Shown one piece after another: positions 1-62,701 of a stretch of 64,000 nt of DNA. The notes beneath the pieces are model-generated. The model had not been told where the DNA came from. It searched no databases and worked only from the letters and a program-made list of their open reading frames with translations. This DNA comes from Blasia pusilla. Its lineage: Eukaryota. The stretch is taken from NCBI GenBank assembly GCA_050084515.1, contig CM114271.1, positions 5,704,001-5,768,000 on the forward strand. Reading direction: 5' to 3'. Each line of letters begins with the position of its first letter. Positions within the stretch are counted from its first letter, which is position 1. A program made the position numbers and the translations under genes.

Positions 1-1340
1 GCTAGAGAGCGGGATTGGATTCTACAGCGAGCTAGACGGTTCCGGTGGGAGGTCACACATATGTTGCAAGTGTGGGAGGATGGTAGAGTACGTGTAGTGC
101 CTCATCCTTCATAGAGAGCACGTTTGGTGGGTCATGCCCACAAAGAGTTGGATCATTTTGGAGTGAAGCGGACGTACAACTTGCTCTAAATATAGTATTG
201 GTGGTAAGGCCAGTAGCTTGACGTTCAACAGTTTGTTGCCATGTGCGGGCATCGTTCAATGCTCGAATCCACAATTGCATCCACTTCCGATCATGGGTTT
301 AGGTTATAGATGGAGTTTGGATTTTGCAAGACCTTTACCTTTGACGGAGCGCCATAGTCGTTATGTGTTGGTGATGGTCGAGCACTTCTCGAAGTGGATA
401 GAGTTGGTTGCATTGTTTGACAAAATGAGTAAGGGAGTAGCATATGCCTTCCTAGATTGAGTGTTGAGTCATTACGGTGCACCATATGAGGTGTTGACAA
501 ACCAAGATACCGAGTTTTGCGGGGAGTTTCAAGCCTTGTGTGATGAGGCGATGATCGACCAGTGCACCACTTTGCTAGATCATCCTCATGCGGATGGACT
601 AGCGGAGAGGGTTGTGCATACGGTGAAGAGAGGATAATACAAGTATGGCATGCAGAGAGGTCACATAGGAGATTGGGACCTCCAGTTTTTGTGGTTGGCG
701 ATGGGATATAGATTCAACAGGCACGCATCCTTAGCATCTTTCTCACCATATTTGCTACTTTATGGGCGAAAGCCTAATTTACCTACGGCCATTTGTCAAG
801 GTATTGGTGAGGTGTTGAAACTTGATGACCTTGATGTATGGATGCGAGCATGTTCTCATAGGAGTGAGGTTGTTTCGGAGATTGATGCCCATGGGGTTTG
901 AGAACTTGGCGATTGCGCAGCATCCGGATACGTTGAGGTATGTGACTACTCGGGAAGGTGGTTATCGACCTACTATCCGGAGGTTTCATCAGGGAGACTA
1001 TGTCTACTTGCATCAGATGGCACCCATGATGTTGGATGTGACTTCACGGCGCACTATCTTGAGAGTGCGTGAGATTTTGCCATGTGTTGTTATCTTATTG
1101 GAGGGATGCAATGGTATGGTTTGGAAGGACCATGTGCGTAATTGTGCGCCATGTCACCTTTCGAACATTGAAAATATAGTAGTTCCTGTAGGCTTACGAT
1201 GTATGTTGTGTGGTTATGGTTGTGGTGCAGTCACTATGCTAATCAATGATGGGTGTTCGAGAGGATGGCAAATGGCATGTTTGACGCCACCTCTCACTAG
1301 GGTTCCTCAAGGACGATGAATGTTTCCCAGATTTACATAT
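1..1340 (+). pseudogene. Ty3/Gypsy pol 3' end: integrase (HHCC zinc finger + DDE core) followed by a degenerate PHD finger; frameshifted
   Basis: Fragments LHPLPIMGLGYRWSLDFARPLP, YVLVMVEHFSKWIELVAL, HPHADGLAERVV and ASLASFSPYLLLYGRKP are integrase-like. C-terminal CMLC...MLINDGCSRGWQMACLTPPLTRVPQGR matches a C4HC3 PHD pattern. Confidence 0.9.
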
Positions 1341-1520
1341 AGTAGGTAGTTCTAGATTCCAACTTGTGTCAGTGACAACGATGAAAAGAAGGCAACTAAC
1401 GATGGGCCATATGAGCACCCGACCTTTTTGCTCTTAGCGTCCTAAAGATGTATGTCATAAAAGGTAGGGATATATGACTATCTGGAGTTAGAGGGACCTA
1501 ACCACCAGCTAGGGGGGCGA

Positions 1521-2226
1521 TTGGAGATATTTTGGTACTTCTCGCCTCTGTGTTTGGATGCCATGATTTAGCATGGGATCGTGCGTGTTTTTGTGTGTGT
1601 GTGTGTGTTCGATGACAGCGATGTATGTTGTGTAGCGATATGTATGAACACGATAAGTGTCATGTCTTTTAGGATATATCGGTGAGATCTAGTAGAGCGC
1701 CTTCGCGAGTAGTGGAGGACATCTGAGGAGGTCGAGGATGACTTGTTGAGGCCCCGGGAAACTTGAGAGAGCAAGTTTCCCCTTCATTTCAGCTCATTTG
1801 GGGCCATATTTAGAAACTTGCTATTTTGGGCAATTATCATTTTAAGAATATGATCAGTTTCTATTCTAGGAAGTATCCCTTACCTCCTACATCAGTTCAA
1901 GAGCCAAGGAGGTGATTTGGGAGCATAGGTTACCATGGAGAGAGCTTGATAGCTCATTCTCTTTTATTATACCTCTTGGCATGAGGTGGCGGAGCTATGG
2001 TCCTGCTTGTCTTGTGTGTGTAACCCAAGCCTCTCATTAGGAGAGTGGGTTTGGTTTGACATTGAGAGAGACATGTGAGAGTTATGGTGTTGTAAGAGAG
2101 ATTTGACCTTATTTTATTGGAGATATTTTGGTACTTCTCGCCCCTGTGTTTGGGTGCCATTAGTTAACATGGGATCGTGCGTGTTTGTGTGTGTGTTTGG
2201 TGATAGCGATGTGTATGAGCATGAAA
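1521..2226 (+). repeat. 3' terminal repeat block B1-A2-B2 of the integrase-PHD retroelement
   Basis: 1521-1655 and 2117-2226 are direct repeats (ttggagatattttggtacttctcgcc...). A2 starts TGTCATG at 1658 and the block ends CATGAAA at 2226. Confidence 0.85.
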
Positions 2227-5000: not shown

Positions 5001-7207
5001 TTTGGAATGACCCTCTACATATTATTACCTCTACATACAAATTTCACTCTGGTGGTCTGGTATATGGGTGGAATAATTGAATTCAAAGAAGTAGTTGTGA
5101 TGTTCCAGGCTTAAGGGTACTTTATGGTAAGGTTTACTACAAGTGTGGTTTAATACTTCTGATTTTTTAACATCAGTACTTAAGTCACTAAATACTATAA
5201 TTGGTTCCTACATAAATGGCAAAAACCCTGAACTCACTACCTGAGTACTGGAAGTAAGGAGAGGAATACGGAGAATGGAGCCTCATAATAGATTACATGT
5301 ACAAGAGCACACTATAAACATATAAGAAAGTAGTCAAGTTGAAGTAAAACTTAACTAATGAAGGCGTGAATGATGAACAAACATGAATTTGTGACTCGAG
5401 TAGTAATAGAACCGACCTGCTTTGCACTTCAAAATGGTTGACTTCTGGAGAGGAAAAGGAAAACAAGCTGAAACAGAAGAGAGGAAGTAAACCAACACCA
5501 GAGATCACATAAATGTGGTCAATCTTGGGTCTCTCGTGGTAGTACAAGTATGTGTGTGATTCAGGAGAATCCAAAGAAATCTCTATTAGTTGTCATTATT
5601 GTCAACCTCAGATAGATATAAAATAGAGTTAGGTCAAAGGTTTTGAGTTCATAGTTTAGCATTAAAAAAACGTGTGTTTGTAACGGTAGTCATTGGATGT
5701 ACCAATGATAAAGACTCAAATCAAGGAGTTTTGAGAATTGTGCACATGGTGCCGAGAAGTGAAATGAGCAGGATGTGGACTGTGAGAAGATTTTGAAATC
5801 TGCAGAGTCGTGGACATCTAGCTAGGAGCTAGTGAACCCTCATTGAAGTATTCATTGAAGCTTTAGGAAAGCAATTGGATGGAGTAATCCTGGGTGAGCT
5901 TGAGCATGACAAGAGCTAGCCTTTCACCTTTACCAAGACTTCTTATATTGTTGATTGTCAAGTAAGACTCTACACCTTGGTGTTTTACAACTAATGCGGA
6001 TGTGACTAAGTTGGGATACCGTCCATCAACTTGATTGATCCTGCACATCGACTACAGAGCAAAAAAATAGTCTAGACATTCTGAGTAGTAGATAGAGGTA
6101 TAGAATTTTAACTCAAGAGGTTCATCGACCTCGTTTAGTAGGCGCTTTCAACCATCCAAGAACATGGATAGCACTCTCTTCCATTGCTAATAATATGTAT
6201 GGATTTTGTGACCAAGTGTAAGTCTACACTCACACTTACACGGTGGATGTAGGCTATCTGCTGTATGTTGAAAATGAAAGCAGACTCATAGAGGAATCTA
6301 CCCTTGATAACCCTAGGATTAAACCCTTGGTAGTGCATCAAAATTTCTTCTTATGTGCTTGTGACACTCGACACCAAACGTCGAAGGCTCTAGAGATGTT
6401 GCTACACTTGAGATACTCATAATCATAGACCTGCATTGAAAGTTGGAAGTTGTCAAAGACAAGGTGGTGTGTGTGATGAGGAAGAATGGTGACTACTCTA
6501 CATACTTATAATTGAAGCAACATATGATTGATAAGGGCACCAACTATGACAATAAAAAACAACAAGGAAAGTCAAACGATGTAAAAGAAAGGTGACAAAA
6601 AGTCGCAAGACACTTCACAACGGACGATTGGTGTGAGGAATCCTTCTGTTGATCTAGAATTTGCCTATTTATGATTGCTGATGAGGAAATGCGAATTGCC
6701 TTTTGTGCACATGGGTCACCAATCTGATCGTGCATTTGGATTTCCTCAGTTCTGAGCTACACAGATGGTGCATTCTACTTCGATTAAGGAGCAGACACAA
6801 AATCCAACATTAGAGTTTCCCATGACGAAAGTTCGCAGGTGCTTAAGGTCTCAAGGGAACTACTTCAGGGGCATTCTCCTACTATATTTGACGATATCGT
6901 TGCCATATTGGAAAAGGGACATCAAGAAAACATTAAACAATAGGAAAAACAAGTCATAAGAGATGATGACAGAGCGAGGAGTTTCTACTCCAATCGGGAA
7001 ACAATAACATGATGGACTCGCAAAGCTATCTCGCTCACAAGAGTCAAAGAATCGGCCATTACAAGTTCATCAAAAGATGGTGACTATGACCAACAATGTT
7101 AGGTCTATTTGGCTCTTATCGTTGTGGTATCCATGTAGTGCATATCACTGCCGAGTGATAGAAACACGATGACTTTGAGTACTCCGAGGGCTGCTAAGAA
7201 CATCGAG

Positions 7208-7287: not shown

Positions 7288-8729
7288 GGTGAAAAAGAGG
7301 AGGAGAACCAAGAAGCTCCAAGTAAGTAAGAGACCTGATCAACAAGAGAAACCTCAAAATCCGTAGAGCAAAGGCTCGCGCGAAGATGTTCATCAGAGAA
7401 AGTAGCGAAGAAGATCCCGAAAGCATAAGGCGCCCAAAAGGTTTAAGAAAATCAGGAGAGTAAAATGCCCGGAAGAAGACCCATTTTAATTGAGTTCTCA
7501 AAGAGCAAGATCTCGAGAACACAAAGCCGCGGAAAGTGTGAAGGAACAGAACCGCGTCGATCTAAAGAGAACAAAATGCCACAAAAAATAGCAAATGTGA
7601 AGTCGATGCAATCGATGTATAGAGCGCGCAACAATTTCATAAAATACAAAGAAAGAAAGAAAGAAAGAAAGAAATTAGGAAACACGCTTGGAATGGAGAC
7701 GGAAAAGAAAGGTCTCTCTCTTGTATCCGTATATTGAGGCGAATATGAGCTATGTTTTGAACGTAGGAGTAAATTTTTATGGAGAATCCGATGAGCACGC
7801 TCCAAGCGAGATGGTCCATGCAACATGCAACAACGATCAAGAGATAAAATTGAAACGACGGCTTCCTACACTCCCTGCATTGTTTCCGCACAAACTAGGA
7901 GAGTGTTGTAGTACTCCCTACAAACATAGTGGAACGGTAGTGCTAATAAACATTTGCTACATATGCAAAAAGTCTAGGTGGAGTGCTTCCCTGCCCAGAT
8001 AAGAGACGAATGATTTCCCTAAACAACATTTATAGCACAGTCCCTAAACAACATTTAATTAAGGCGTAGTCCCTAACCAACATTTAATTTAAGGCCTACT
8101 TGTAGGGGCCGTAAGTAATGTGGATGAGATATCAAGACTATCTTTTTTTGTAATTCCACTTTTTTATGCATTAGTAGTGCATGTCATAGTGCTGGCCCAT
8201 GGTAAATATTTATGTATCCCTACCCAATTTTGTTTGATCCCATGACATGTACAATATATGTAAAGTGTGGCTGTGTCTACCTAGTTGAAATGCAAATCTA
8301 CATGTTGATGGATGAAAATTGGCAAAGCCTTGGCCTAACCATTCTTGAACCCAACCCATTTCGATACTACTATGAATATTTAAAGATCATATAATGATTG
8401 AGACAGAGATCAAACAATTGGATATGACAAAATTTGGGTATCCTTTCACTTGTGGCAAGACTCCAATGTTATTAATGTCCAATCCAACCTGAGATGCAAA
8501 TCTACATGTGGATGGTTGAAAATTGACCATGTCTGGGCCTATTCGTGTTTTTTAATATTTCCATTTCAAAGCTACTATGAATATTTAAAGTTAAAATATA
8601 CATTTAAACGGAGACAAAATAATTGCTCATGATCAAGATAATATTTTGATACCCTTTTACTTGCGGTAAGATGCAAATGGATATCAATGTCTAATCCAAG
8701 ATTTGGAACTAAATTGCGAAACTCTAAGT

Positions 8730-9660
8730 GTTTGGAGTTATTAATGAAATCCACCGTTCTTAGGTTAGGGTTAAAAATTTGGTGACATGAAGGCACTTGA
8801 GTAATCTTTCACACCTGACTGTACAACATTGTGTTCGTTGGCCACCGCAACTTTGGACGGCCCCACCCAAACTTTAACTATTTGAAGTAATTTTTATACT
8901 CCAATGTTCAGAGGGGTAGGTCATGTGGTTATCGATGGAGGCACTTGGGTATCCTTTGAAAACTACATCAAGATAAATGTGGTTGTTGAAAATAACGGTG
9001 TTTGACTTATGTGTATGAACTTTGATAATTTGGAGTAATTTTTGTACTCAAGTGTTCAGAGGGGTAGGTACAAATAGTGACTTAATGAAGGCACTTAGAT
9101 ACACTTTCACACTTTCATATACATCAATGTACTCGTTGGCCAGAGAGGATTTGGAAAGACCTACACAAACTTTGACTATTCGGAGTTATTGGTGTACTCT
9201 AGTGTTCATAGGGTATGATTATTTGGTTATCAATGGAGGCAGTTAGGTATCATTTGAAACTCACGTGGAGACAAATGTGGTTGTTGGAAATTTCTTTTTT
9301 TGGACTTCCGTGCGTGAACTATAGTAATTTATAGTATTTTTTATACTCAAGTGTTCAGAGGGTAATGTAAAAAAAAGTGAATCAATGGAGACACTGTGGC
9401 ATACCCTTTTGACATCTTTGTGGAGACAAATGTGGTCATTTGAAACGGATATGGCTTTGGACTCCCATGCATGAACCTTATTTATTTAGGATAATTTGTG
9501 TAGTGCCGGTGTTTAGAGGGCATGATACAAAAAGTGACTCAATGCATGCACTTGGGTATACCCTTGCACACCTACTTGGAGGCAAATGAGGCCATTAGCC
9601 ATGATGGCATTGGACATTGAACGCTCCAACTCCGACTATTTGGAGTTATTGGTGTATTTG
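8730..9660. repeat. Diverged ~150-bp tandem repeat array (about 6 units)
   Basis: Recurring tttggagtaatt...tactcaagtgttcagagggg...aatggaggcacttgggtat...gagacaaatgtggt motifs at about 150-bp spacing. Confidence 0.8.
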
Positions 9661-36099: not shown

Positions 36100-37712
36100 G
36101 GTCCTAGTCGAGGGAGTCTAATCTCTAGTCATGGATTGAGTACATCTCCTCGGATGGTAGTGTTGTTTCCTCAAGTCTAGAGGTAGCCACGATGGAGATA
36201 ATGTCTCTTTTTGGGGACGTGAATACATATGGAGTCGTCAACATCGGTTAAGTCAAGCAATTGAGCGTGCACTTTTCACCCATGGTGTCATCCTATTGGA
36301 TAGTACCAAAGGGGTATTTTGTTGGTTAGGCCCTCTAGTATGATGTAACAACCAAAATGTGTGCTCTTGGACTCTAGAGCACAACCCTTGATGTTGGGTA
36401 GAGTTACGGTCTCGGGATTGGGATTGCAAAAGTCCAAATTGGGGAGACACCCATTTTAGATTCAAACGGCACTTTGTCATTCTAGTGTGCCGCAATTCAT
36501 GTGGCGTTAAGAGTTGATAGTGAGGGTAAAGCCAAAACATCCTAGGAATGGTTCGATTGTGAGGGGCCAGTCGAGCAATCGGCATGGAGTTGTGTAAAAT
36601 GTTAGTTGGCAGTGTTGTATAATATCCCATTGGATTTAAGTAAGACTCTTGGGAGAAGTCAACCTCATATTGTTTGGATTTCTAGTCATGTGGTGGTCGT
36701 GTCAAATTTTTGCCAATGTATGTGATTGGAAATGTTAGTGGAGTATAGTGGGATCCGATGGCGAGTGTTGCAACTTACTCTTCAACGGTGAGTGGGGTTA
36801 GCAAGCAACCTATAGGAGGACCAACCACTCGTCGATGATGTGTTAGACAGTGAGGATAATATTGGAATGATGCCATGTGTGAATTGGGGACCAATAGTGG
36901 ACCTAAGTGAGTTTTTGTAGCAAGCGAGCATCCAACCCTTTCATCTTAGCATAAAAAAATTTGCATATTACTTTTGATTGTTGTTGACTATCTCAGTTCG
37001 GAGGGACTCAACTATTATGTAAGGTTGGTTTTCTAGACTCTTTATGTCATGATGTATTTACGGATGTGATGTGGTTGAGTTATGTGTTGTTTTGGTATTA
37101 TGTTTGTGTGTGCATGACAACGATGTTGTATAGTAAAATGATTCAACATATATATTTCATTCTTGTAAGTGTTTGAGAGAGTTTATATAAGTGTTTTCAA
37201 TGAGTGATTATTTTAGGAAAATAAATTTTTATGTTAAACCTTTTAAGAATACATCATCTATGTGTGCCAAACTGTAGAAAAATAGGTCATAAATGAGATA
37301 TGGAAAACATACAAATAAAATAGTGGGTTGGTATATGAAAATAAAACTAAAGTAGTCGTGGTTAGTGAATTAAAACCTCCTCGATTATGTTTCAATATCA
37401 GTTATTCCATTTTTCTAGTGTATAAACGTAAATTGGGTTATAAAGAAATTTATAAACACCAAAACTTCATAGTTAGAAATTTTGGGATTTTGTGCTACGA
37501 AAAAATAATAGCCTTGGTACAACCATTTATGATCCCTATCAGTAGATAATGGAGAGTGTATGTCATGCTTCTATATTACATAGGAAGAAAACTTGTTACA
37601 TAGTTCATTTTACATCAAAAATTGCTCCATCTAAAAGATTCACTCTAACTCAAATAAAGGTTCTAGACACGACAATGATATATGTTGTGTAACGAGGTGT
37701 TAACGCATAACA
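36100..37712 (+). mobile_element. Internally deleted member of the split-repeat Gypsy group (protease remnant + 3' end with a single B repeat)
   Basis: VLLDSRAQPLMLG protease motif at ~36360-36400. 36920-37010 resembles 1410-1510. The B-like segment continues across the solo-LTR insertion and ends gcataaCA at 37712. Confidence 0.7.
37124..37674 (+). mobile_element. Degenerate solo LTR (same family as 59267-60546)
   Basis: TGTTGTATAGTAAAA...GACACGACA ends; flanks ACGA/ATGA (4-bp TSD, one transition). Confidence 0.8.
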
Positions 37713-39149
37713 AACATAAATGTTGTGATATATATCAAGGTATTTATATTGAAGAGAGAGTATGTAATAGGCCTCAGTAGGGACGCTATATGTGTAGCTA
37801 GGTATAAGGAGGCCAAGAGAAACCTTCCTTGTAGACATGTATATAAAGATCATCTTGTGGGAGATTTCTTGGTTATATCCCAAGGGGAGGCTTGGAAGGG
37901 CTCATCTTTCCACAATTGAGCCTTCGATTTCCAAGCAAAGTCTAAGGCAGGGTATTGCCATCATACATTATACATGGATTCCCTCATTTTCAAGATAGAT
38001 TTGGTTGATTTTTTATTTATTGTGAGAGGACCTCTATACCGTTAAATCTCCTTAAACAACAAATTGAATCTCCCAAGTGCAAGTGTGGACTTAACAATCA
38101 ACATTGATGTGTATCGCCATATCTAGTATTTAATCATTGATCTAAGTACAGATCAACATACTAATAGTCAATCAAATTTCATCAATTAATTCATAATGAG
38201 ATGGCAAATTTTCGGGTAAGTCAGAATCCCATGCTCAACACACCATAACATCTATAGGAAAACTACGAGATGAAAAATCATGAAAAAACCCATTAAAACT
38301 CTTTAATTAGAACAAATCCATAATTAATCAAAAAATAAGCAAAAGTAGATAGGTAAGTAAATTGCAAACCGGCCATTTGCAAGTTGGGTAGAATTTTTTT
38401 TTTATGGATAGGCCAATCCACCACGTAATTCCATGAATTATATGTAGGTTACTTTGCATTGTATAATAGGAAAATGACACAATTGGTATTGAACCTCACA
38501 TACACATACTTTATTGCTACTCCTATGATAGGTTGTTACCAAAGAATCCTATTAATAAATGGATAGTAGTTCCGTACCCCTTTTCAAAGAAAAATTCAGA
38601 AAGCATAAATACAATATCTCCACCAAGGCTCTCCAACGAGGCAACTTCACTTCCCATCTTCACACGACGAGTTCTCCCTTCCCCACTCACTTTTTCTAAG
38701 TAAAATCAAGTAAAAAAATGACACACTTGGCCAATTCCACCTTCAAACCAATATGCGGATCGGGTTTGGGTTTTTTAAGAGTTTTTGGGAAGACAGTTCA
38801 GAGAATATAGTGGGAAGAAACTGGGCAAAGAGTAACACGGTGAGAAGAAACGAGGGTTAGAGCTCCGGGTTTCCTGAGGCAACACAATGAAGAAAAAAAT
38901 AACCCAAGAGCGAGAAGCTGAAGACGGTGTGAATAATGGTCCCATGGGAAAAGCATTAATACTAACACGAGGCAATTATTGATTGGGAAAAGACAAAAAT
39001 TATCTTAATCCATCCGACGTGCCAAAACTTCAAATCAGAGGGTTGAGAATAATGTAGAATAACTTGTATTCAGCAGGCTCTACACTCCAACTCACATGTT
39101 TTAGGGGCCATAAATACCTAATTTTATGAAGTCACATCTATCCTAGCCT

Positions 39150-41340
39150 CTAACATAAGGGAATCCAAATCTAACACACTATATCCTAGCAAACCTTAGA
39201 AGAAAGAATATTCTTAGGTTCAACATGAGGAAGATGGCTCCAAAGAGCCATCTTATCATCTCACATACCCTTCTACAGAGCCCAGACCCCCCCCCAAAAA
39301 AAAAAAAAAAAAAAAAAAATTAAAATCTTTCCTAAGACATAAGATAGCCCTAAAATAATTGCAGGTAGATGATCATATCATCGTTGATGAAGTCAATAAG
39401 TCATTCAAACCAAAACATCAAAATAGGGAAGTTGTTAGTAACAATAGTGATGATCTCAACCTAATCCAACCACTCAAGAAAAACTTAGAGTCAAGTAATC
39501 TTATGACTCCCTATCTCATCAACACTTAAGAACTTTTATAATTAACCAAATATGATGTGATACCATCACATAACCCTCATCAAACTTCCTCTAGAACCAA
39601 TTTTGGTATGACACTCCGAAGGACTATCATTATGACATCTCTTTCATATCCATAATTTCTTCATGGCATCTATGCTTTTGTATGGTATATTGATAACCAA
39701 GTCCTTCTTGTAAATAAAAATAGGAATTAGGAAAAGAAACCTTGTATATGAGGTAGGTGATATACTCAACCCCAAGTCCATATGCATTTAGAGATTATAG
39801 ACGTGAATTCATGCTAGAACCTTCTTTGAAGACATCTACATGTGGAAATGATTTTTGGTGACCCACTTTCATTATTTTATCTTCCAACCATAATTGATTT
39901 AACTTATCCCAAGGACACCTACCCTAAGCTACAATCATATCTTCCTACAAGATGAGAGTCTCGTATATACCAGTTTCAAACAACAAGGAGGCCCTTCTAA
40001 AAATCACTTTTGAGAAAAGAGCAACCATCCAACCATGATTTGATATTATGCATTGGGAACTCTAGCTTTGGTTGTAAGGAGGGATAGAAGAGGAGTAAAG
40101 GATCTGCACTACAACGGTTTTGGCTCTTTACATTCATAACACACCACTTCAATAGACAATGGTATGTTGAATATTGGCTATTAACTTATATTAGTGGTCC
40201 GAAGTAAGGGTTACACGCTTATGTATTTGATAGTGTTTCATACTCATCACAAGTATTATGAGTTTTGGTCAAATTCGACAATAACCAACAATGGCAGATG
40301 ACATCCATAAGTGTTCGCAGGGAGAAAGTGGGTGGTAGCTCAAAAAGGAGTCAAACTTTCAAGAAACCTTACCATAAGCTAGCCTTAGTAACAATTTGTA
40401 CCATGGAGGAGATATTTATTCTCATTTTTTGTTGTATTTTTTTGGATTGTAACTAGACGGCTCTAAAGAAGTTTGACTCATGCATATCCTTGTGATCTAC
40501 TTCGTATATGAATCCCTTATCGTAATTATGGATCATTTGTAATTTACATTTATGACTTGTAATTTGTTTGTTTGTGCGGCCTTTTTCAATCAAGGACTAG
40601 ATGTAGGCATCTTTTATTTTTCCTAATTTTTTGTTGTTGTTGTTGTACATGGTACTCAATCTTCACCTTAGATGAGAAAATTTTCTTGTGGATAGAAGAA
40701 GAGAAACCAAAATTATTTGAGGGAAAAGGTAAAATTTGGCAAGGATTAAAAGTGAAGAGACTCTTGGATTCTCAACATCTACTTCGTTGAGCACCATTAA
40801 TCTTGTGCGCCCCTTCATGAGTGGCTCCCATGTGTGTTAGATACTTTTGGGACTCTAGTTAGGTGAGTAGAAGGAGCTAGAACAACAATCTGCAATTTAT
40901 ATGGGATCATTGGTGCCATTCGGACCAAGATGGTGGCAGCTCACACATCATATTGGGATAGGAAATTAGCTTCACCTGTCCATGCTTACAACACAGCTGA
41001 GAAGAGTACCACAGGGAAAAGTCCCTACTTCTTGGTGTATGGGCAGAACCCTCTCTCGGTAGTAGAGTTGGAGTTGAAGACTGATCATACTCTAGAAGGG
41101 CACTTCCAACCTGAAGATGGCATAGATAGCACGCTGGATATGATTGATGCCCTAGAGGAGGAGAGAAAGGCAAAGATTAGAGAAGACCAAGGCCGTTCAA
41201 AGAACAAAGGAAGATGAGGTTTGATAACCGAATACAACATGATCCAGTGAAGGAGGGGACATGGTGCCGATGTATGATAGTCGACCCCAAAAGTTTATAG
41301 AAAGCTACACATTCGATCGCTTAGGCCTTATCGGTGAGGG
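39150..41340 (+). pseudogene. Highly degenerate Ty3/Gypsy pol; integrase C-terminal half recognisable
   Basis: WDRKLASPVHAYNTAEKSTTGKSPYFLVYGQNP at 40930-41217; upstream pol traces are weak. Confidence 0.65.
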
Positions 41341-50599: not shown

Positions 50600-53147
50600 C
50601 TTTTCCTTTCTTCACTTTGTTCTGTTAAAGCTTCTCCTACTATCGTCTCTTCTCCCTATAATTCAAGCCTTTGTCCAAAAACTTGGCCAATCTCTTCGTT
50701 TTCTTCTTATGTGATATCAGTATCCAATGCTCTCACCATCATCATATCTACAGTCATCTGCCTTTTTGTCTTGATCATATCTATGATCAACTCATGAAAA
50801 TCAAGTTTGGGTATCCCCAAGACTTCCCTAAAAGAAAATTCTATTTTTGCGTCCAAAATCCTTTCCTCAAGAATCTCCTTCAAATTCGTGATTGCCTCAA
50901 TATCATACTGCAATTTGTATGTAGGAGTCTTACCCTTTTTCTTTTGAGGAGACCTCATTTCTTTATTCTTAATCCCACCTTCTTTCCTATAAAAATCCAT
51001 CATAGATTTAGATGTAGAAGGCCCTTCTTCTTTTTATGGCTACGCCTCTGATTGTCTTTTCCTTCTTGTGGTCCTTGCTCTTCTTGCAACTTCCTTAGGA
51101 TCAACACCATCATTTTTGCATCTCCTCTTCTCCTCCACACTAGCATCTTGCCAACTCAGATGTTTCTCTTGTGCTAGGTATGCTTTAACACACCCAAATT
51201 CCACTGGATCATCCCATCCAGTCAGATGACGAATAGTCTCTCCCCTCGTAGCATCACTTCTTGAGGAAATTCTAATGATTCACTTTTAGCTACAGATATA
51301 ATATGTGTTTCTATTTTTAGTGCAAAGATATTAGAATCTAATATCATAGTGGTAACTCCTACTTGAACTCTCACTAACCTCTTCATTACTCAACTACCAA
51401 AGTTCGTATTCAATGACATATAAGTCTACGTTGAATGAATTTTCCCATCTTTGAAGTTTACAATTTCATTCCTAAGAGCTTCTGAGAACTTCTCACATTC
51501 TTAAGGTTGATGCTCAACACTATCACACCATATACATCTTCTTACAAAGTTTCTACTTATCGAAGGAGCACCAACATTAGAATTCCTATCAAGTTTAAGC
51601 TCAACATTTCTACTCTCAACTCTCTAAAACCTTTCACCAACTCATCAATGGCAAAATCTTCGAGTTTTGTTGATATGGGCTTAGGCAAGGGAGTTGGAAT
51701 TGATACCTCTGACTTGAATGTTGTGGTTCTACCTCTATTTTGACTTTGCTTTGTGAGGATAGCAAAAACTTCCTCCACTTTCTTCCAATTTGTGTTGAGT
51801 TCTCCTTCTCTGATCTTGTCTGCAAACATTATGAAAAGCTTATCCTCCAAATTCTCATCAGTCGCCTCAAGGAATAGCTTGATTTTTCTCAAGTCTAGAG
51901 TTGCCATTCCGGAAGAAGATAACTCAAAAAACCGCTTCTCAAACTCACGCTAAAATTCATTTGGAGTCATTCTCTTTCCTAGACGTTGCTCTATCCATTA
52001 TAGAAAACTCCTCTTAGTCACCCGATCCACATCATCATCGAAGAATTCTCCTTTCAGCAACTACTCATATTCCTCCCACGAGGTTGGATTTTCTACTCTC
52101 AATTTTTTTACTTGACTACGAATCTATGGTATTACAGCTAACTCAAAACTTGACACCATATTTCTTTCTGGTACATGATTTACCTCCATCTCATAGATGT
52201 ACTCTTAAACAAATTTGGTGATGTTCCTCCCATCAAATCTCCCCAACTTCTTTACAATCGCTTAGAGAGCCCTTATTGATCTTTGCTCTCCCAATTGAAC
52301 TCCGCTTTGTTGGCTCAATAATGTTGTTAAATTTAGAAGAAGATCCTCACCTCCCTCAGTTCCTATCGATGAAGTAGTACCAAAAGAAATCATCTTGATA
52401 AGACTCCAACTTGCAAACACAATCTACCGCCTCAAAAAGCTCTTAGTGGAAGCATCATTTATCGTGTCGAGAGCTTTTCTTCGAGTAAGGGCGGACCTTC
52501 TAGCTATGGCAAACGTGATTGATATAAGGTGAACTCTATGAGCAAGTTATCTTTTCTCAATACATAATTATTACATAAACCCTCCATTCTCTCACGAAAA
52601 GAAATCAAGAATGGCAGTATCGAGGCGATCACTTCTTCATAACATCGAATCCCAAAATTCCTAACTATGAAGTCTCTGGACACTAATTTACGCTTATACA
52701 CAAGAAAATTAACATAAATAGTGTTAAACCCTACTCAAGCACGCCTGTTAACATCCATGGATCGATATATAAGAACATACAACGTACAATTCTATGTCCT
52801 CCCATACGTGACAATAGGAAAAATCATGGGAGTTGGAGATTGCATGACCTAGTTCATGAATGCTTCTCAAAAGTGGTAAACTAGATAGCGAGTAAACCAA
52901 TGCTATCTACGAAGAGAATCTTCACGTGATACGGGTTAAGGAAAGGAACAACATGTACAACTTGTGCTCCACCCCTATCCATACTTGACGGATATCCTCT
53001 ACTATCCTTAGGAATAGGTTTTGGCGGAGTTGCTCTCCCAAGAGGGGTAATCCACTCTCATTCGGAAAATAACAAGCCAAAACCATCTACTATCCCTAGT
53101 ATGACTAAACATACCACACTCGGAAAAACACTCAAAGAATAGACCAT

Positions 53148-56100
53148 TGTCGTGCGCATACACATCGCTACACAACCCACATTGCAAGTCATATCTACAC
53201 ACCACACATCATCGATCTTCCCCAACATACGGATAGATCCACACATAAATGAAATTCACTCATGCATATACACTAGGAACCCCACAACTAAAATCATGAG
53301 TAGTAAAAATGGCTCACCCAGCCTAAAACTCCACTCATGAATCTACATCGACATATCAAACCACATCCATCCTCTACTATGAGGGAATCCGGACGCTAGC
53401 ACCCTAACTCCTACACACCCACACACGTCTATGCAAGAGAAGCGCTCCTAAGGCTCAACATGAGAAAGATGGCTTGAGAAAGCCAGCTCTCTCACTCTTA
53501 TATCCTTGGGAAGAGCCAAAAGGTTCTTCCCCAAAAAATAGCCTCCAAACGATAACCTACGTGCACAAGTTACCGGGTGACTGTTGACTCGGTCAACGGG
53601 TCACCTGATAGCCTAAAACCAAGATAGGGAAATTGCCATAAACTCACAACAAACATGTCTCCAACCTCATCCGACATCTCGGGATGAAGATACACCCGGA
53701 GAGCCCGTTGACTCTCTATGCCGTTGACGCGATAGAACTCTATCTTCGCCAAAATAAGATGTGACAGTTATCGTGCGCATACACATCGCTACACAACCCA
53801 CATCGCTGGTCATATCTACACACCACACAACACCGATCTTCCCCAATATAATGGTAGATCCACGCATAAACGAAATATACTCACGCATATACATTGGGAC
53901 CCCAAAATCTCCTCCCTAGCTGGCAGTTGGGTCCCCCTAACTCCAGATAGCACACACATATATACCCGACAAGATCTCCTATCGTACAAACATCTAGCAC
54001 CATCGGTGCCGTCATTCCCGCAACATTATCACACTGCAGCAACCCGCCGTGTTGATCCCTTCCAAGAGATCTAACACTCTTGTACCTTGCTCAAAACAAA
54101 GATACGGCTCCACGTATGCCTCACGAGCTCGTATGCACTCTACGCATCTCAACGCTTGTCCCCAACAACAATAAAGTAACTCGGCATCATGGGGAAGAGA
54201 CACCCATCTTGGCATGTCTCTCCGTAGGACTATCCGCTACGGGAATGTCCTCCGCATGTGTGCTCCTCTCCCCAAACCCTCATGATCAGCGAACACCTCA
54301 TGTGAATGCTGCCAACGTGGTCACCGCATCCTCAAGTGGTTGATCATCACTACTCCGTGCAAACTGCATTGGTAGATGGCTCACTCGTCCATCACCTGAT
54401 CGCCACCCTGGCTGATATGAAATCGTCTCCTCCCAAATTCAAGAATAAAACCAAGGGGATACAACACCGTACTTCCTACCAACGCATCATACGACTCTAC
54501 CAGTGTCATAATTTCCCGAGTATTGGTTATAGTGACCAAAGCAAAGCCCTGCGTCTCGAGCGGCTGAGAGACAAGACTATCATTCTCTCCCGAGATGTCA
54601 TTCTTGAAGATCAAAGACCACTCCACCGCTCTCTTCTTCGGAAGATCGGCTATCCAGTGATCCTCTATTTTTTCCGCATTTCTTACATGGTCCTAATCCT
54701 CAACCTTCCTTGTCTCTTCCTGCTAGTTCCCGATTATTCCCAAGAATGGGAACTCCTTCTCCTACTATGTCTTCTTGTGGGAGTTCCACCTCTTTTAAAT
54801 TTGCCTCAACCAGCGGACGTGCCTTCACCAATGTCCTCTTTCTGCACACCCCATACCTGGTCCCGGGCGCACCCATCTTTACTATGAAAGAAGACCACGA
54901 GCTCCTACTCCTCCTCTTGCTCAAAGAAAACTCCTCAAATTGCTCGGGCTGTTGAGCGTTATGATGCACTTATTGAAGCTGAGAAGGACAAGAAGCGAGT
55001 TGCAGAGAAGCGTTGGCTATCTGACACATGCTATGGCTGGAGTCTAACCACCAACTCCTGTCAAGTCATGAATTGCGTGGGTGATATGCCCCCAATAGAG
55101 GTCTGTATTTGAAAGGGACCACGCTCAATGTCGCCTTTCCGTAAACCCAACGCCAAACACGCCGCCTTCCCTAACATCAAGGGCTGCGCTCTTGAATCAA
55201 GTAGAACGCGCCGCGGATGGTACATCGTTCATGTGGTACTAACCAAGCGAAAAAAATCCTGCTCGGTTATCCAACAACACCACACCTAGTGTGATCATGC
55301 CTCGCTCTATCGCTGGCCTAGTTGGCATATATACCAACTTCGTTGTCGCCGCATGCCATGAATCAATGGAGGACGTCATGAGTACCGCCGAGGGTAAGTC
55401 TACCACCTTCTCAACTACCTCTGAAGGAGAGGCAGTCACCTCTCCACGCTCACACAACGTGGCGGCCAGCCGGAACACCTCCGCTAGTCCAACTCCCAAT
55501 GTTGCCATTTCCATGGGGAAAAACAACAGAGCTTGGCTCAACCTAGTGGCCACCTCCAACAACGTGGTCAACACTGGCTCTTCTCGAGCCGCCATAGGAG
55601 TCGTCTCTCCAACTCCTCGTGACGTCAACGCACTTTTCCCACTTGTGGGTACTACTGGTTGTTGAGGCACCATCGACGGTGTATGTAGTGCCTCTGACAA
55701 TGTGAACAACTAGGGAGCCCTAGCCTACCGCCCATCGGTCCCCTCCTGTGGGTAAATCTCAACCCCACTTCTCGATGACTCGGTTACTCTCACAGCACCC
55801 CGAGTCACCACCGCAACCAACAACCTCAACCTGAGCCGCACTGCACATAAATCCCATCCCCGCAAAATCCTCACCAACATTGTGGTATGATGTGGAGGTT
55901 GGCGCCACACTAGCTACTCTCGGCTCTGGGCCCGCCTGTAGCTGCATCATTGTCATGGCAAAAATCCTTTGCTCCAACTGATCAATGCACGTAAGGAGCA
56001 TTACATCGGGTGCAAGTCCTCCATCTCCCGTGATTGATGATGGCACTCTACCACCACGGTCATCTTCCACTCGATCTCCACCAACTCTCTCGCCCTCAAG

Positions 56101-59100
56101 TCCTCTGCCTACCTTATGACGTACCTCCCGACGAAGATCATAACATTTATCCCTAGTGTGACCATATCGGTGACAATGATCACAATGTAATTGTGGTGGG
56201 GTCATCCTCTGTGGCTCCTAAGCAATCGGAGGCGCCCGTGCTCCTCTCCCATGCTATGGGGAATCCATCTGCCTATGTGACCCACCACACGTCCAAAAAG
56301 TCAACCTTGGGCCCTGTTGGGAAACATATGTCAGTATGGGTCGTTGCCTCATCGGCTCACGATACCCGCCCGGATCCTTGGGCCCACCAACCCGCTCTCG
56401 TAGTATTGGTGCATGTTGGGGCATCTGTGGGTATACTCCTACTTGTCGACCCATCGAATCCAGCGAAAAACCCATGGTCACCACCTTCTCCTCACTCATG
56501 TTGAGCTCTATCCGCTCAGACAACTCGAAGACCACCTTCAAAATGGGCTTCGCAGCGTGAAGCAATATCACATCCCAAACTCTCCTCTGTAGCTCCTCAA
56601 CTAGCATCCTCAACTAGCACCCCGTATCAAGACTGCACTGACTAAGCCTCAATCACCCCATATGTGGCAACGATCAACCGTCCCATGCGCGTGAACACCT
56701 CCCTTAGACTCTCATCCGATCTCCGCTGAAAATCATGTAGACTCTTCACCTTTTCAGTCCGCACGCCATGATAGCTCCTCCCCAACTATCGGAAGAACTC
56801 CATTGTAGGACTGAAACTCCGCGGTCCTCTACCACGAGAGGTCTCTACCACCTCACCACTCTCACTACCATCCTCTCCATCTAGTCCTCGGGCTGATGGT
56901 GAAGGTCTCTCCGCTCTCACTATCCCATCATACACCTCGCGGCCACTAGTGGACATATACCCTGGAGCCCAATACACCCTCCAAGCATCGATCTCTATAA
57001 ATTATAGAGATCGGAACCCCATGTAATCATCCATCGGCGGATCCTCCAAGTGATGGAACAACCCCTTCCATGCCATAAAAGGGCTGAATCGCGTAGGGGT
57101 CCGTATCTCCTCTCCTGAAAGTCGCACCACGTGTCAGATTCCTGGATGAAATCATCTAACTCTATAGTGCCTACCGCACCCGAGAAATGACACATGCCCC
57201 GTGGCCCATATTGTCCATCTCTCTCCACGTATCATTGTCCCCCTACGCGATCTCGTCACCAGAGTCGTTGTCTAGTGATGACGATCCAGCCACAGATAGG
57301 ATTCGGGGTGGTTCCTCACTAGAAACCCCTCGATATCTCACACCACTATGTGTCACTCCACTACCACTTCTCCTACTACCCCGTTCTTCCAAACACAGAA
57401 ACAATGTCGTGATGACAACCCTGTCTTATCCGCTCAAACACTCAAACTCGCCAAGAGTCTCCCACACTCCTCACTAGCTCACATACGCTAATGGTAATCC
57501 TGTGACGACACACCCGGCCTCACGCACACTCAACACTGGGGCTCACCATGAGCCTCCTATTAACTGACCTAACTGACACCCTCGGGTCATACACACGATC
57601 CCTACTCGGAAACCGCTGTATTTCCACCAACATGCTACACATGAAAGGAATCTACACTTGTCACCATCTCTACAACCATCTAACACCAACAACTACCCGA
57701 TATCCAACACCCTCCATGACACAAGATAAGTGCGGGAAAAGGGACTCGAATGGGTAACATGATCACACCCTCCAACCTACTGCACCGTTAACACTCATTC
57801 CTCCATGTAGCACAACAACCTCCGCGACATAATACTCTCCTCGAACACACGTCAAACCTCCCATCACTAGATGCAGACTACCCGTCGGCATCAGCATACT
57901 AATACTCCATTGCAAATCATCGGTGTGGATCACTCGTCTCATCCCCAATCAACAAAGTACTAGCAACTCTCGTCGAAAATCCCCTCCACGCTCGAAAAAC
58001 ACCAAGTCCAAAAATATCTCCGCCTACGTAGTCTGAATCAACCATGTTGTGACTTCTACCATGTACTTTGGCCGTACCTCGACCCGGCCCTAACAATGTT
58101 GATTCCAACCATATAGCCTCGTCATCACGTTATCTCACCAACCACGATCGCTTCAACCCTCTCAATTCTCCTTCCACCACGTCCGCTCACGGACCTAGAC
58201 CTACGTCCGCCTCTCACGGCCACGCTTTCACTCCCGAAATCTCTCACACCGGCTCGTATGCTCTAGCTAACCCGAGCACGCATCCATACGCGCATCCCCG
58301 TACCCACTCCTACAAGTTTGGGCCATAATGGCTCCTTCTTTCGAGACATAATAGCTCTTGCCCTCTCCTTGTATGACTCAGCTATGTGTGGCTACACGGC
58401 CTTATGGTCAAGCACACCACCCTATGCAGGGTGCACAACTACCCTACCCCCTTCTCAAGCCCGTGCCACCCTTCTTAATCCCATTCGATCCCTTCGGCTC
58501 ATGGCTCCGACTCTTGGCCCGGCGCCCTATGCAAGGCCTCATGCCTTGCCCTTTCCCAAACCCAACTCCCTATCCTCCTCTCCTTGCCTCCCGCTTTAGC
58601 CTCGTGCAACATTTCTCTCTATGCAAGCCTGTCGAGCCTTAATTGCCTCCTTCCGACCACGGGCACATGAGGATGCGTGGAGGCCTATGCATCTCCGGCA
58701 ATGTCCTTCTCCATCCCCCTTTTGCCCTCTCAACCTTATGCTCCCGCAACCCATCCAACTCTTCCCGTCTCTACAATTAGATTCCCTTCCTTAGATACGC
58801 GGAAACTACTCCTGCCTTCACATTTCCTCTACCTTTCCTAGCTCCGAGCTCTCTGGCCCTCCCTTCGTCATAAAGGAAAATCCGCCTTCTCCCGCTTACT
58901 TCCGTCCGTGGCTTAGTCGCTCACCCGCGCTCTCGCCTTCAGGCACACGCCCCTATGGACGCGCCTTTTGCCCTCGAATATCTGCCACCATGCACTTCCA
59001 TCCGACGACCTACCTTGTCCACCTACGTAACTATATAGTTGTATGCCTACACGACCTAATCTTAACCTAGGCGGCTGCAACCTAGCCTGTAGTCTACCTT

Positions 59101-61175
59101 GGCCGCATACATATGAGACCTACGGCTACAAGACGTGAAGTTACTCTCTCTCTTTCCCAAAACTCCCGCTTCTCTCAACAATACACTCACCGCCCCTCTC
59201 TGTGCTATGCTCAACCGCTGTCCCCCGTCACCCGCACCAACAATATATGAGAAAAATGGACAGCCCTTTCATATAATAAAATCACCCACTATGTAAACTC
59301 TTCTATCATTGAGTGTTAGAGAGAGTTTTATTAGTATTAAGTAAATTAGCCAAGGAAAATGAAATTCCCATCTTTAAACCTCTTTAGGATGACTAATTTG
59401 CACACGCCCAACTTTAGAAAAAGAGATAATAAATAAAAGATGGGATTATAAAAGTAAAGTAGTGGGGTCGGTGCTTTAATGAAACAAAAGCAAAATAGTC
59501 TTGGTTGATGACTAGGGTAGGTGAGGTAGTTTGAAAGATATAAATGGAGTAAAAGAGGATATTTTGAAAGAGATAAGAGGTAATCTACTTGTGTCAAAAT
59601 GTGTTTGGCTAAGCCTTGAGAGGAAGCCATGTGGCACAAGATAAGATTAGCCTTATTTTGTATTCTTATATATCCCCTGTGAGTATATAAAAAGGAGGGA
59701 CCTTCAAGAGTTCATCACCTTCTACTTCACATCTTGAGTCTTCCGTGTCACTCTTGAGTGTATGGCTTTGGGATTGCTTGTTCTTCCAATGAGAGTAGAT
59801 TACCCCTATTGGGAGAGTAACTTGACCTTGGTCTATTCTTCGAGACGTTTCTAGAGTGTGGTATGTGTGGGCATGAGAGACTTGTCACCTTAGATGAGTT
59901 TAGTCATACTAGAAATAGATGATGGTTTGGCTTGTTATTTTCCCAATGAGAGTGGATTACCCCTCTTGGGATAGCAAATTCGTCAAATCCCATTCTAAAG
60001 GAGAGTAGATGATATCCGTCAAGTATGGATAGAGGTGGAGCACGAGTTGTGTCGGATTTTCCCTTTCCTAACCCACACCACATGAAGATTCTCTCTGTAG
60101 ATAGGCACCGGTTCACTCACTATCTAGTTTATCACTTTGGGGACGTGTTCATGAACCAAGTCATGGAATCTCCAACTCTGGTGATTCTTTCTATAGTCAT
60201 GTATGGAAGGACATGGGATTGCATTTTTTATGTGCTTGTATAGTTATCTATAGACGTCAATAGGCCTGCTCAAATAGGGTTTAACACTAGTTGTGTTATT
60301 TTCCTTATATAGAAACGTAAAGTAATTTACAAGGACTTAATAGTTAGGAATTTCACGATTCCATATTATGAAGAAGTGATCGCCTCGGCACTACCTTTCG
60401 TGATTCTTGTCGTGAGAGAATGGAGGATTTACATAATAATTATGTACTGAAAAAGGATAAATTCTTATAGAGTTCGACTTGCATCAACCACGTCTGCTAC
60501 AACTAGAAGGTCTGCCCTTACTCGAAGAAAGGCTCTCGATACGACAGCGCTTCCGCGCACAATCTCTCGGACTTAAAAATGACTATACAAACGCCAACTA
60601 GAGTCTCCAGGGGCTTACGACCAAGGCAACTTACTTGCCTACCTGCAAACAACAAATTCTCACCTATCCCCTCGCATCTTTCTCATGTAATATCATGAGT
60701 AGTCCAAATATCTCACCCAGTCTAAAACTCCACTCATGAATCTACATCGGCATATCGAACCACATCCACCCTCTTTTATGAAGGAATCCGGACGCTAGCA
60801 CCGTAACTCCTACAGACCCACACACGTCTATGCAAAAGAGGCGCCCCTAAGGTTCAACATGAGAAATATGGCTAAAGAAAGCCATATCTCTCACTCTTAT
60901 ACCCTTGAGAAGAGCCAAAAGGCTCTTCCCCCAAAAATAGCCTCCAAACGGTAACCTACGTACATAGGTTACCGAGTGACCGTTGACTCGGTCAACATAT
61001 CACCTTACAACCTAAAACCAAAATAGAAAAATTGCCATAACCCACGTTCCTGACACAACAAACTTGTCGCCAACCTTATCCGGCATCCCAGGATGAAGTT
61101 ACATCCGAATAGCCCGTTGATTCTCTATGCCGTCGACGTGATAGAACTCTACCTGCGTCAAAATAAGATGTGACA
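53148..61175 (-). mobile_element. Full-length non-autonomous Gypsy-like element with split direct repeats: A1 61175-~60690, B1 53904-53769, A2 53766-~53290, B2 53284-53148
   Basis: TGTCAC...CACGACA ends; perfect CCAT TSD; gag with zinc knuckle CDHCHRYGHTRDKC; protease RVLLDSRAQPLMLGK; no recognisable RT or integrase. Confidence 0.88.
59267..60546 (+). mobile_element. Solo LTR (~1.28 kb) nested in the 5' region of the split-repeat element
   Basis: Reverse-complement homolog of 61740-61176 + 53147-52460; ends ATACGACA; flanks GCCC/GCGC. Confidence 0.85.
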
Positions 61176-62701
61176 CCATGGTCAAGTTAATCTCCCAAGA
61201 AGGGTAATCCATTCTCAATGGAGGAGCAAGTAAGCCCAATGCCATCCACTCAAGAGTCACACAAGAACTCAAGCAATGAAGTAGAAGGTGATGAACCCTT
61301 GAAGGTCCCTCCTCTATATATATTCACAAGGGATTCATAAGAGAACAAAATAAGGCTAATCTTATGTTGTGTCACATGGTTTCCTCTCAAGGTTTAGCCA
61401 ATCAAATTTTGACACAATTACATTACGTCGTATATCTTCCAAAATATTCTCATTTACTCACTTTATATCTACCAAATTACCCCAACTACCTTAACCACTA
61501 ACCAAGACTGCTTTTCGTTTTCTTTCATTCTTACACCAACCTCCCTACTTTACTTTTATACTCTCATGTCTTATTTATTACATCTTTACCTCAATTTGGG
61601 CCCGCAAAACTTAGCCATCCAAAAGAGGTGCAAACATGAAAAATTCATTTTCCTAAGCAAATTTACTTAATACTAATAAATCTCTCTCTAACACTTAATG
61701 AGAGAGGAGTTTAAAAAATGGATAATTTTACTATACGACAAGGGGACGGTACTCATCGTCGTTGAATGGCTACCACCTCAAGACATAACAAGTCGAGAAG
61801 GGAGAAATACAACCCTATCAATCCAAAAAGGTTATCGTCCAATCAACAACAGTGAAGAACGCGACGTCGACGACAGCCAACAGATGGAGCAAAGACGGCC
61901 CAAATGGATGGTGAAAGTCAATAGTAATTATAATATGATAAAAAATCTTTATTTTTTATCATATTATATTTTAACCTTATTAAAAAATCTTCTTTTTTTT
62001 TTTTCCACTCCACTAACTCCTTAAACTAACGGCACTAAAATTATTCACATTTGGCCTATACTCCACTAAGTCCCATAAATATTGGGTTAACACCTATTAA
62101 ATAAAATTTCCACTCATCTTAACCTCAAGATCTTAAGTTTTACTTGTCCTTTCCACAATAAGAAAAGATTTTTGAAGTTTTCTACCTCAACTAAGAAGTT
62201 ACCAAGAATTTTGAAATTTGCTCTTTCTCAAACAATGGCTATGGCAGCTATGCGGAAATGATCATAACTTCTTGCTTAGATGTTTAAATAGCACACCGTT
62301 TTTTCCACAACGTGCACAAATTCTTAATCTAGCCCTGATTTCTTTGACCTTCCAATAAAAAGTCACGAGGACTATCATGCAACCCTTCAATTTACACTCA
62401 TACGTCAAATTTGATAGCACTTCCGCGTTGATTTCTCCTCATAGAAATTTCAAACCTATCACAACAAAAATCAGAGAGCTACATGGTGCTCCTGATAGCA
62501 CTGACATGGAGCAAACCGCCCCATACTCAACAAAATTTGGGCAGCACTTCCGCGAGTCACTCTCCCACACGAAAAATTGGACAGCAAAACAGCAAACGGA
62601 GCCGTTGGAAAGGAAACATAGTCCCCAACCTACAACAACCAACAAGCACCAGCGTGCTCCTCCATTTTTGCTCTCAAATCCTCATTCTCTCTTTGTAAAT
62701 C

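Follow-up and report, generated by a model that had tools for sequence, protein, structure and literature searches.

Retrotransposon classification ties long terminal repeats (LTRs) to a DDE integrase and split or inverted repeats to a tyrosine recombinase, and tyrosine-recombinase elements are generally described as inserting without a target-site duplication. In a 64,000-nt stretch of the Blasia pusilla genome (GenBank assembly GCA_050084515.1, contig CM114271.1, positions 5,704,001 to 5,768,000 of the forward strand; hereafter the window), we analyzed a retroelement at 53148-61175, the main copy, that carries two direct repeats, A and B, in the split order A1...B1-A2-B2. The element is a member of a Ty3/gypsy lineage of bryophytes whose coding capacity comprises gag, protease, a cytosine-5 DNA methyltransferase, reverse transcriptase (RT), RNase H (RH), a DDE integrase, and a C-terminal PHD finger, a domain reportedly also present in REM1 of Chlamydomonas. 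Integrated copies of this lineage read A1-PBS...PPT-B1-NN-A2-B2 (PBS, primer-binding site; PPT, polypurine tract; NN, a two-nucleotide spacer), with TGTC...GACA ends and 4-bp target duplications.

Several described systems share part of this anatomy. Ngaro/PAT-like elements of the DIRS order, in the passages on their structure (PMC7192593), show the same A1...B1-A2-B2 arrangement and hold both element ends side by side at B1|A2. The present lineage differs in its DDE integrase, its 4-bp duplications, its TG...CA termini, and a PBS and PPT that define a normal LTR; of the features of the DIRS order it displays the split repeats, and neither a tyrosine recombinase, as judged from the one relative scanned over its full length, nor duplication-free insertion. 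A nearer match is KnitGypsy-Dnmt3 of the alga Klebsormidium nitens, a Gypsy element with a Dnmt3 in Pol (de Mendoza et al., 2018; PMC5890265). The legend of Fig. 4c in that paper notes DIRS-like repeats in the order A-coding-B-A-B, so that a Gypsy Pol with a cytosine methyltransferase and the split order occur together as they do in bryophytes (Riccia, Calypogeia, Marchantia, and Sphagnum). The sections of the paper that treat the element mention no PHD finger, target duplication, PBS, PPT, or mechanism, and they call the methyltransferase acquisition specific to the K. nitens lineage. The two are likened by description, no K. nitens protein being among the related-protein matches. PMC5890265 was the only report of the layout in an integrase-bearing element found in a full-text literature search, with subscription journals, Repbase reports, and supplementary files outside its range. 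The layout thus appears to have been noted once before, in a charophyte alga and without a mechanism, and the bryophyte lineage and the mechanistic reading given below would be new, the mechanism itself being unproven.

Two further comparisons concern replication. Tf1/sushi elements and Tcn1 chromoviruses, as far as the lineage descriptions go, have no tRNA PBS and a transcript start complementary to the PBS after U5 (the unique 5' region of the LTR), as predicted here, and Neumann et al. (2019; PMC6317226) predict that the Tcn1 lineage, which occurs in non-seed plants, is self-priming. Unlike the present lineage, with its permuted ends and its PHD finger at the integrase C-terminus, the Tf1/sushi and Tcn1 elements carry a chromodomain and a pair of identical LTRs. 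Retroviral integrases, in the relevant parts of reports on prototype foamy virus (PMC1180852) and human immunodeficiency virus type 1 (PMC1905944), cut palindromic LTR-LTR junctions of two-LTR circles. There, a DDE integrase attacks a CA...TG palindrome within the DNA instead of its tips, which is the step proposed below. In the retroviral case, the palindrome is the joint between U5 and U3 (the unique 3' region) and its use is a side path, whereas in the present lineage it lies inside U3, around a 2-nt spacer, and its use would be obligatory. In short, the element looks like Ngaro/PAT and would work like a self-priming Ty3/gypsy element.

Self-comparison of window 52000-62500 placed the split direct repeats of the main copy on the minus strand, in the order A1...B1-AC-A2-B2 (B-A-(gt)-B...A when read on the plus strand; Table 1). 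The A pair (60688-61175 and 53289-53766) was 85.7% identical over 488 nt and the B pair (53768-53907 and 53147-53287) was 86.5% identical over 141 nt, while the sequence adjoining A1 (60547-60687), compared with both B copies, matched neither. The element sits, with CCAT on either side, in one 1.28-kb repeat, R, the halves of which are 52462-53147 and 61180-61743. An uninterrupted inverted paralog of R reads ...aatagaCCAAggtcaag... over the insertion point (empty site, 59824-59835). Since this empty paralogous site confirms it, the CCAT duplication is real and not due to chance. A first-pass annotation of the window, made from its letters, had proposed this repeat order (with an A of ~485 bp and a B of ~140 bp), TGTC...GACA ends with a perfect CCAT duplication, and the lack of a TGG-type tRNA PBS 3' of A1. 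Each of these held, and a 13-nt self-complementary PBS stands where the tRNA-type site would be. The main copy is an old (repeats ~14% diverged), pol-deleted, non-autonomous member of its family.

Table 1. Coordinates of the retroelement copies and associated features in the window.
Feature	Position	Strand	Basis
Second, diverged copy, cut at window start: RNase H/integrase (DDE)/PHD frame with stops and one frameshift	1..1337	+	Open reading frames (ORFs)
3' end of second copy: PPT 1478-1520, B1 1521-1655, AG, A2 1658-2116, B2 2117-~2222	1478..2222	+	Sequence reading
Third, strongly diverged A-like repeat, start ATGG|TATCACATC, with self-primer segment	38960..39566	-	Sequence comparison
Target-site duplication CCAT, element 3' side	53144..53147	.	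Empty paralogous site 59824-59835
B2, terminal B copy; element end ...GCACGACA	53148..53288	-	86.5% to B1 over 141 nt
A2; start TGTCACATC; TATAAG ~53502-53497; predicted transcript start/self-primer 53471-53459	53289..53766	-	85.7% to A1
2-nt spacer AC in near-palindromic junction ...CGATA-AC-TGTCAC...	53767..53768	-	Sequence
B1, internal B copy, directly 3' of PPT	53769..53907	-	Self-comparison
Putative PPT, conserved purine-rich block ..AGGGGGA..GCTAGGGAGGAG	53908..53950	-	86.7% over 45 nt to window 1478-1522
gag remnant, three stop-to-stop ORFs	55239..56613	-	tblastn, 30-41% amino-acid identity, colinear with gag region of autonomous relatives
Nested unrelated 1.28-kb repeat R, flanked by GACAG (59259-59263, 60543-60547)	59264..60542	+	Inverted paralog of host repeat
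Predicted self-priming PBS CATGAGAAAGATG, immediately 3' of A1	60675..60687	-	Perfect 13-nt complement of A2 53459-53471
A1, 5' repeat; start TGTCACATC; no B after	60688..61175	-	Self-comparison
Target-site duplication CCAT, element 5' side	61176..61179	.	Sequence

The same order was found in a second, diverged copy at the start of the window. Its pol frame (1-1337) showed 61-67% amino-acid identity to Ty3/gypsy pol proteins with RVT_1, RT_RNaseH, Integrase_H2C2, rve, and a C-terminal PHD finger, the named relatives being those of Riccia sorocarpa, Calypogeia fissa, Marchantia polymorpha, and Sphagnum fallax. Since B1-A2-B2 follows the DDE integrase in this copy, the arrangement is also that of a diverged integrase-bearing relative. 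Likeness between the second and main copies was limited to the PPT block (86.7% over 45 nt, against 53950-53906 of the main copy), the 3' portion of B, and the opening bases of A; the bodies of A did not align.

To extend the comparison to the whole lineage, we used 12 aligned pol proteins to scan contigs from metagenomes; the scan confirmed 539 of 597 candidates, and 80 loci (L-numbered contigs of short-read metagenome assemblies) were kept. Layout was typed by self-comparison of each locus and by mapping the reference A and B repeats onto all 80 loci, and loci with the same 3' flank were merged into distinct insertion sites. Results showed two prevailing forms: type I, pol-B-A-B, in 28 loci (21 distinct insertions), and type II, pol-B-flank, in 26 loci (21 distinct sites). 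A few loci were truncated or rearranged, and 16 had no match to the reference A or B, being contig ends or carrying more diverged repeats. Both copies in the window, which derive from a genome assembly, are type I. The layout occurred in two sublineages, with pol identities to the query of only 43-48% and 60-70%. Among the 20 loci with an upstream A, none had B upstream of pol, and none had the mirror order A-B-A...B (type III), compared with eight type I loci in which both ends were present. The canonical signature of an LTR element, two identical outermost LTRs, is therefore absent: A alone stands at the 5' end, and B-NN-A-B at the 3' end. The lack of B in the 5' repeat, noted earlier for the main copy, thus extends to the lineage (0/20), and the state that would have spoken against it, a complete A+B 5' LTR followed by a PBS in most copies, was seen at none of these 5' ends. 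In one locus, L014, pol was followed by two head-to-tail tandem pairs, 8097-8414 (159 bp) and 8535-9002 (234 bp), instead of B-A-B.

The boundaries of the relatives were those of integrase-mediated insertion. Where both ends were present, A started with TGTCATG and B ended with CACGACA. In 16 relatives, a 4-bp duplication at the start of A1 and the end of the last B was perfect in eight, matched at three of four bases in six, and was absent in two; types I and II were alike in this respect. The pol order was PR-RT-RH-INT (PR, protease; INT, integrase) with an rve integrase, as in Ty3/gypsy elements, and the catalytic residues D382, D442, and E477 (D,D35E) were invariant in 12 of 12 aligned pol proteins. 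No Phage_integrase (PF00589) match was found in L070, the one relative scanned over its full length (three frames of 2955-5602 and the ORFs of the rest), and only ~70-190 nt separated the end of pol from B1. Insertion of the integrase type, as the first-pass annotation had supposed, is thus supported in the lineage by its D,D35E integrase, its duplications, and the lack of a tyrosine recombinase in L070. These same data leave very little room for a true tyrosine-recombinase (Ngaro/PAT) retrotransposon, which the split direct repeat order would suggest and against which the TG...CA ends, the 4-bp duplications, the rve integrases, the absence of a Phage_integrase match in L070, and the short interval before B1 all argue.

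We also examined how these elements may be primed. The bases directly after A1 were perfectly complementary to a segment of A (~position 163) over 11-17 nt in 10 of 19 loci, a length that no control window (of 200) attained in any of those loci. The complement measured 16-17 nt in L015, 15 in L042, 13-15 in L028, and 11 in L070. In the main copy, the 13 nt at 60687-60675 pair perfectly with A2, and there are 2 base differences in the A1 version of the target. The PBS sequence varied between sublineages, with pairing retained. A TATA(A/T)A motif lay 31-34 nt upstream of the complement in six of the nine loci inspected, and the main element has it in both copies of A. A complement ~31 nt 3' of a TATA box is an arrangement that suggests Tf1-like self-priming, with the initial bases of the RNA predicted to act as the primer at the PBS. 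The earlier suggestion of tRNA-independent priming is consistent with both the self-complementary PBS and the spacing of the TATA box. By eye, a hairpin was apparent ~15-45 nt after A1 in L028, L032, L042, L059, and L070 (e.g., CTGTTGCT...AGCAACAG in L032), and differences between copies in this hairpin were mostly compatible with G-U pairing in the sense RNA.

Given that the PBS follows A1 and the PPT precedes B1, A should hold the promoter, the R segment of the LTR, and U5, with its end being the end of U5, and B should be the start of U3. We therefore propose, with moderate confidence and from sequence comparison, that this is a Ty3/gypsy family with self-primed B-NN-A LTRs, integration through an internal palindrome, and a circularly permuted provirus. 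Transcription would start in A, ~31 nt past the TATA box; by folding back onto the PBS after A1, the initial 11-17 nt of the transcript would prime the minus strand, while the plus strand would start at the G-rich PPT immediately before B1. By the ordinary two-jump scheme, the reverse-transcribed LTR would then be B-NN-A and not A-B, and the complementary DNA (cDNA) would be [B-NN-A]-PBS...PPT-[B-NN-A]. Integrase would ignore the tips of this cDNA and act within U3 of the upstream LTR, where the near-palindrome ...GACA-NN-TGTC... would be cut after the CA of each strand, leaving recessed CA-3'OH ends with 2-nt 5' overhangs, a normal substrate for strand transfer. The tip of U5 (the end of A) would be joined to the tip of U3 (the start of B), either earlier, as a 2-LTR-type circle, or later, by host end joining, such that A2|B2 would be the U5|U3 joint, i.e., the classical circle junction. 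The resulting provirus, A-PBS...PPT-B-NN-A-B, would be a circular permutation of the standard form that imitates the split repeats of tyrosine-recombinase elements.

The junctions in the relatives agree with several of these steps. GACA-NN-TGTC was found at the internal junction of 28 type I loci, with NN being GC, AC, AT, AA, GT, or TC, and a run of Gs (..GGGGGGG) immediately preceded B1 in 28 loci. The first base of B2 was the first base of B1 in all 28 type I loci, apart from small indels in L041/L042, L059, L072, and L047. These indels, which represent four distinct insertions, lay exactly at A2|B2 (-5 in L041/L042, -2 in L059, -2 in L072, and +1 in L047), and in the main copy the tip of U5 was ~6 nt short at the same joint. 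Such indels and the shortened tip fit a joint that is made anew by end joining rather than copied. B1 and B2 showed no position-specific differences among copies, and between-copy distances for B1-B1, B2-B2, and B1-B2 were alike (0.088, 0.077, and 0.084 in one set, and 0.111, 0.132, and 0.121 in the other), as would fit the copying of both from a single RNA B in each cycle. Divergence between B1 and B2 was also similar to that between A1 and A2 of the same copy.

Several points weigh against the permuted cycle. It is read wholly from integrated DNA, and not from a circle, a transcript end, or a cDNA end, and the relatives are contigs of short-read metagenome assemblies. A 2-LTR circle with two identical junctions predicts type III as often as type I, and type III was not observed among the 20 loci with an upstream A; the proposal therefore needs an asymmetry that is as yet unexplained. 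One conceivable, speculative source lies in timing: the upstream LTR might be double-stranded well ahead of the downstream LTR and so be engaged first, with the tips being joined later. The 21 type II sites may have arisen from 1-LTR circles, by deletion between B1 and B2, or through collapse in assembly. Terminal branches, an equivocal proxy for age, were longer for type II than for type I in one of two groups (P = 0.036), with no such difference in the second (P = 0.94). L005 (1-2713) and L006 (38-2750), from different metagenomes, were 99.4% identical through pol, PPT, and B1 and diverged exactly at B1|A2, where one continued into A2-B2 and the other into unrelated sequence. This pattern may reflect a chimeric contig or a recent partial duplication; with B1 and B2 of L005 differing by ~6%, it is unlike the B1/B2 identity expected at insertion unless one contig is chimeric. 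Finally, the perfect PBS complement was only 6-10 nt in the remaining nine of 19 loci, as expected of decayed copies or of a weaker signal.

Of the alternatives to the permuted cycle, the one that fares best, and that we still regard as unlikely, retains insertion by integrase and builds the DNA in the manner of DIRS, PAT, and Ngaro elements. B1-NN-A2 would serve as a bridging template, analogous to an internal complementary region, that allows a single-stranded cDNA without tips to be brought to full length and closed into a circle, and the A2|B2 joint would arise without end joining. The layout is identical to that described for PAT/Ngaro (PMC7192593, in its structural account), the B1|A2 junction holds both integration ends together, and such a template could account for the single permutation seen. 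However, a PBS after A1 and a PPT before B1 define complete B-NN-A LTRs by two jumps, which makes the template unnecessary. Moreover, a model based on an internal complementary region does not predict that A2|B2 joins the tip of U5 to the tip of U3, and the small indels at this joint resemble end joining. The first-pass annotation had inferred that the lineage may unite split repeats with tRNA-independent priming and insertion by integrase. Each of the three finds support here, whereas replication in the sense of the DIRS order does not, the permuted LTR cycle being the better fit.

A second alternative, which we consider less likely still, holds that type II comes first. A linear cDNA that undergoes internal 3'-processing in each LTR would normally yield A...B, with A...B-A-B arising secondarily, e.g., by recombination with an excised A|B fragment or by its insertion, and persisting as the only form transcribed with terminal redundancy. 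Type II is indeed as common as type I (21 distinct sites each) and has the same ends and 4-bp duplications (four perfect, three with three of four bases, and one absent; n = 8). Yet this scheme demands a second precise event in each replicating lineage, and B1 and B2 behave as copies of one template, their divergence being close to that of A1 and A2 within a copy. Both genome-assembly copies in the window are type I, and type II could equally result from later deletion between B1 and B2. A one-off rearrangement of the main copy, with B lost from its 5' LTR and duplicated before its 3' LTR, might be suspected in an old copy with an insertion nested beside A1 and a large internal deletion, but we rejected it as extremely improbable given the same order in the second window copy and in 21 distinct insertions of two sublineages, the 0/20 5' ends with B, and a PBS that abuts A1.

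The methyltransferase recurs among the relatives. In L070, a cytosine-5 DNA methyltransferase domain (PF00145) lies inside pol, upstream of RT (7968-8621, E = 4e-8, 33 bits against a cut-off of 22), and tblastn detected the domain in 42 of the 80 loci, in both sublineages. Named homologs of the protein occur in Calypogeia fissa, Sphagnum magellanicum, and Marchantia polymorpha (proteins P0022-P0036). The main copy, its pol being deleted, has no methyltransferase. One protein, P0035 (1948 amino acids), has another domain order, in which RT-RH is followed by a weak methyltransferase match (811-866), integrase, and PHD, with a weak Tudor-like match. Methyltransferase-bearing Gypsy elements, reported as specific to Klebsormidium, are thereby extended to liverworts and mosses.

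The lineage breaks the link between repeat architecture and enzyme regularly and heritably, and it does so in land plants. Standard LTR finders search for a pair of identical terminal repeats flanked by a PBS and a PPT, and they will mis-call the ends, age, and solo forms of this lineage. The anatomy also yields explicit, testable predictions concerning cDNA circles as integration substrates. A broader claim, that an entire streptophyte lineage of elements with a DDE integrase integrates obligatorily through the internal palindromic junction of circular or end-joined cDNA and thereby forms circularly permuted proviruses, is one that we advance tentatively, as possible rather than probable. If it were true, the split-repeat architecture of Ngaro/PAT would follow from the opening of a circle at an internal junction, independently of a tyrosine recombinase, and the lineage would offer a tractable model, with a well-understood enzyme, for the rebuilding of ends in DIRS-order elements.

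Little coding sequence survives in the main copy. Six-frame translation of 53911-59264 (stops as X) gave no Pfam match to RT, RNase H, integrase, or protease, and tblastn of 21 related pol proteins against the window matched 1-1337 and nothing in the main copy. The gag remnant consists of ORFs at 56613-56254, 56217-55759 (with the CCHC knuckle CDHCHRYGHTRDKC), and 55709-55239, the last of which ends in a degenerate, protease-like VLLDNRAG. None had a Pfam match above threshold; by tblastn, they were colinear with, e.g., L015 3657-4970. Since this homology lies on the minus strand, that is the coding strand, and the copy is internally deleted. The designation Gypsy-like in the first-pass annotation is therefore upheld through gag-region homology to autonomous relatives and through the second window copy, and not through any pol of the main copy itself; the aspartic protease that it had also listed was not found by Pfam and is at most the degenerate remnant. 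The sole Pfam signal in the main copy was SH3_retrovirus on the plus strand (54306-54887, E ~1e-3 to 1e-2, below the cut-off). This signal, from a copia-type integrase C-terminus and on the strand opposite to the element, may be a copia fragment or chance.

Among sequencing runs, five DNA runs showed small shares (0.07-0.12), with no RNA run among those listed. Contigs from four runs were mapped to the window at 80% likeness, and thousands of them covered the element family and R. Thirty-four contigs of run X1 continued before 53756 with letters that, by eye, matched the start of A in the second window copy; contig joints in this mapping mostly represent ambiguity between repeat copies. The run presumed to be RNA contributed only 66 contigs, nearly all below 90% likeness. 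In contrast to the remainder of the element, the stretch 58052-58993, in the leader or internal region, had almost no contig coverage and may be private to the main copy. The third A-like repeat (38960-39566), beside which no recognizable or matching PBS was found, is possibly a 5' fragment. The R family has defined ends, with a 5-bp GACAG duplication at one copy and a short, internally deleted form of 560 bp at 37116-37679.

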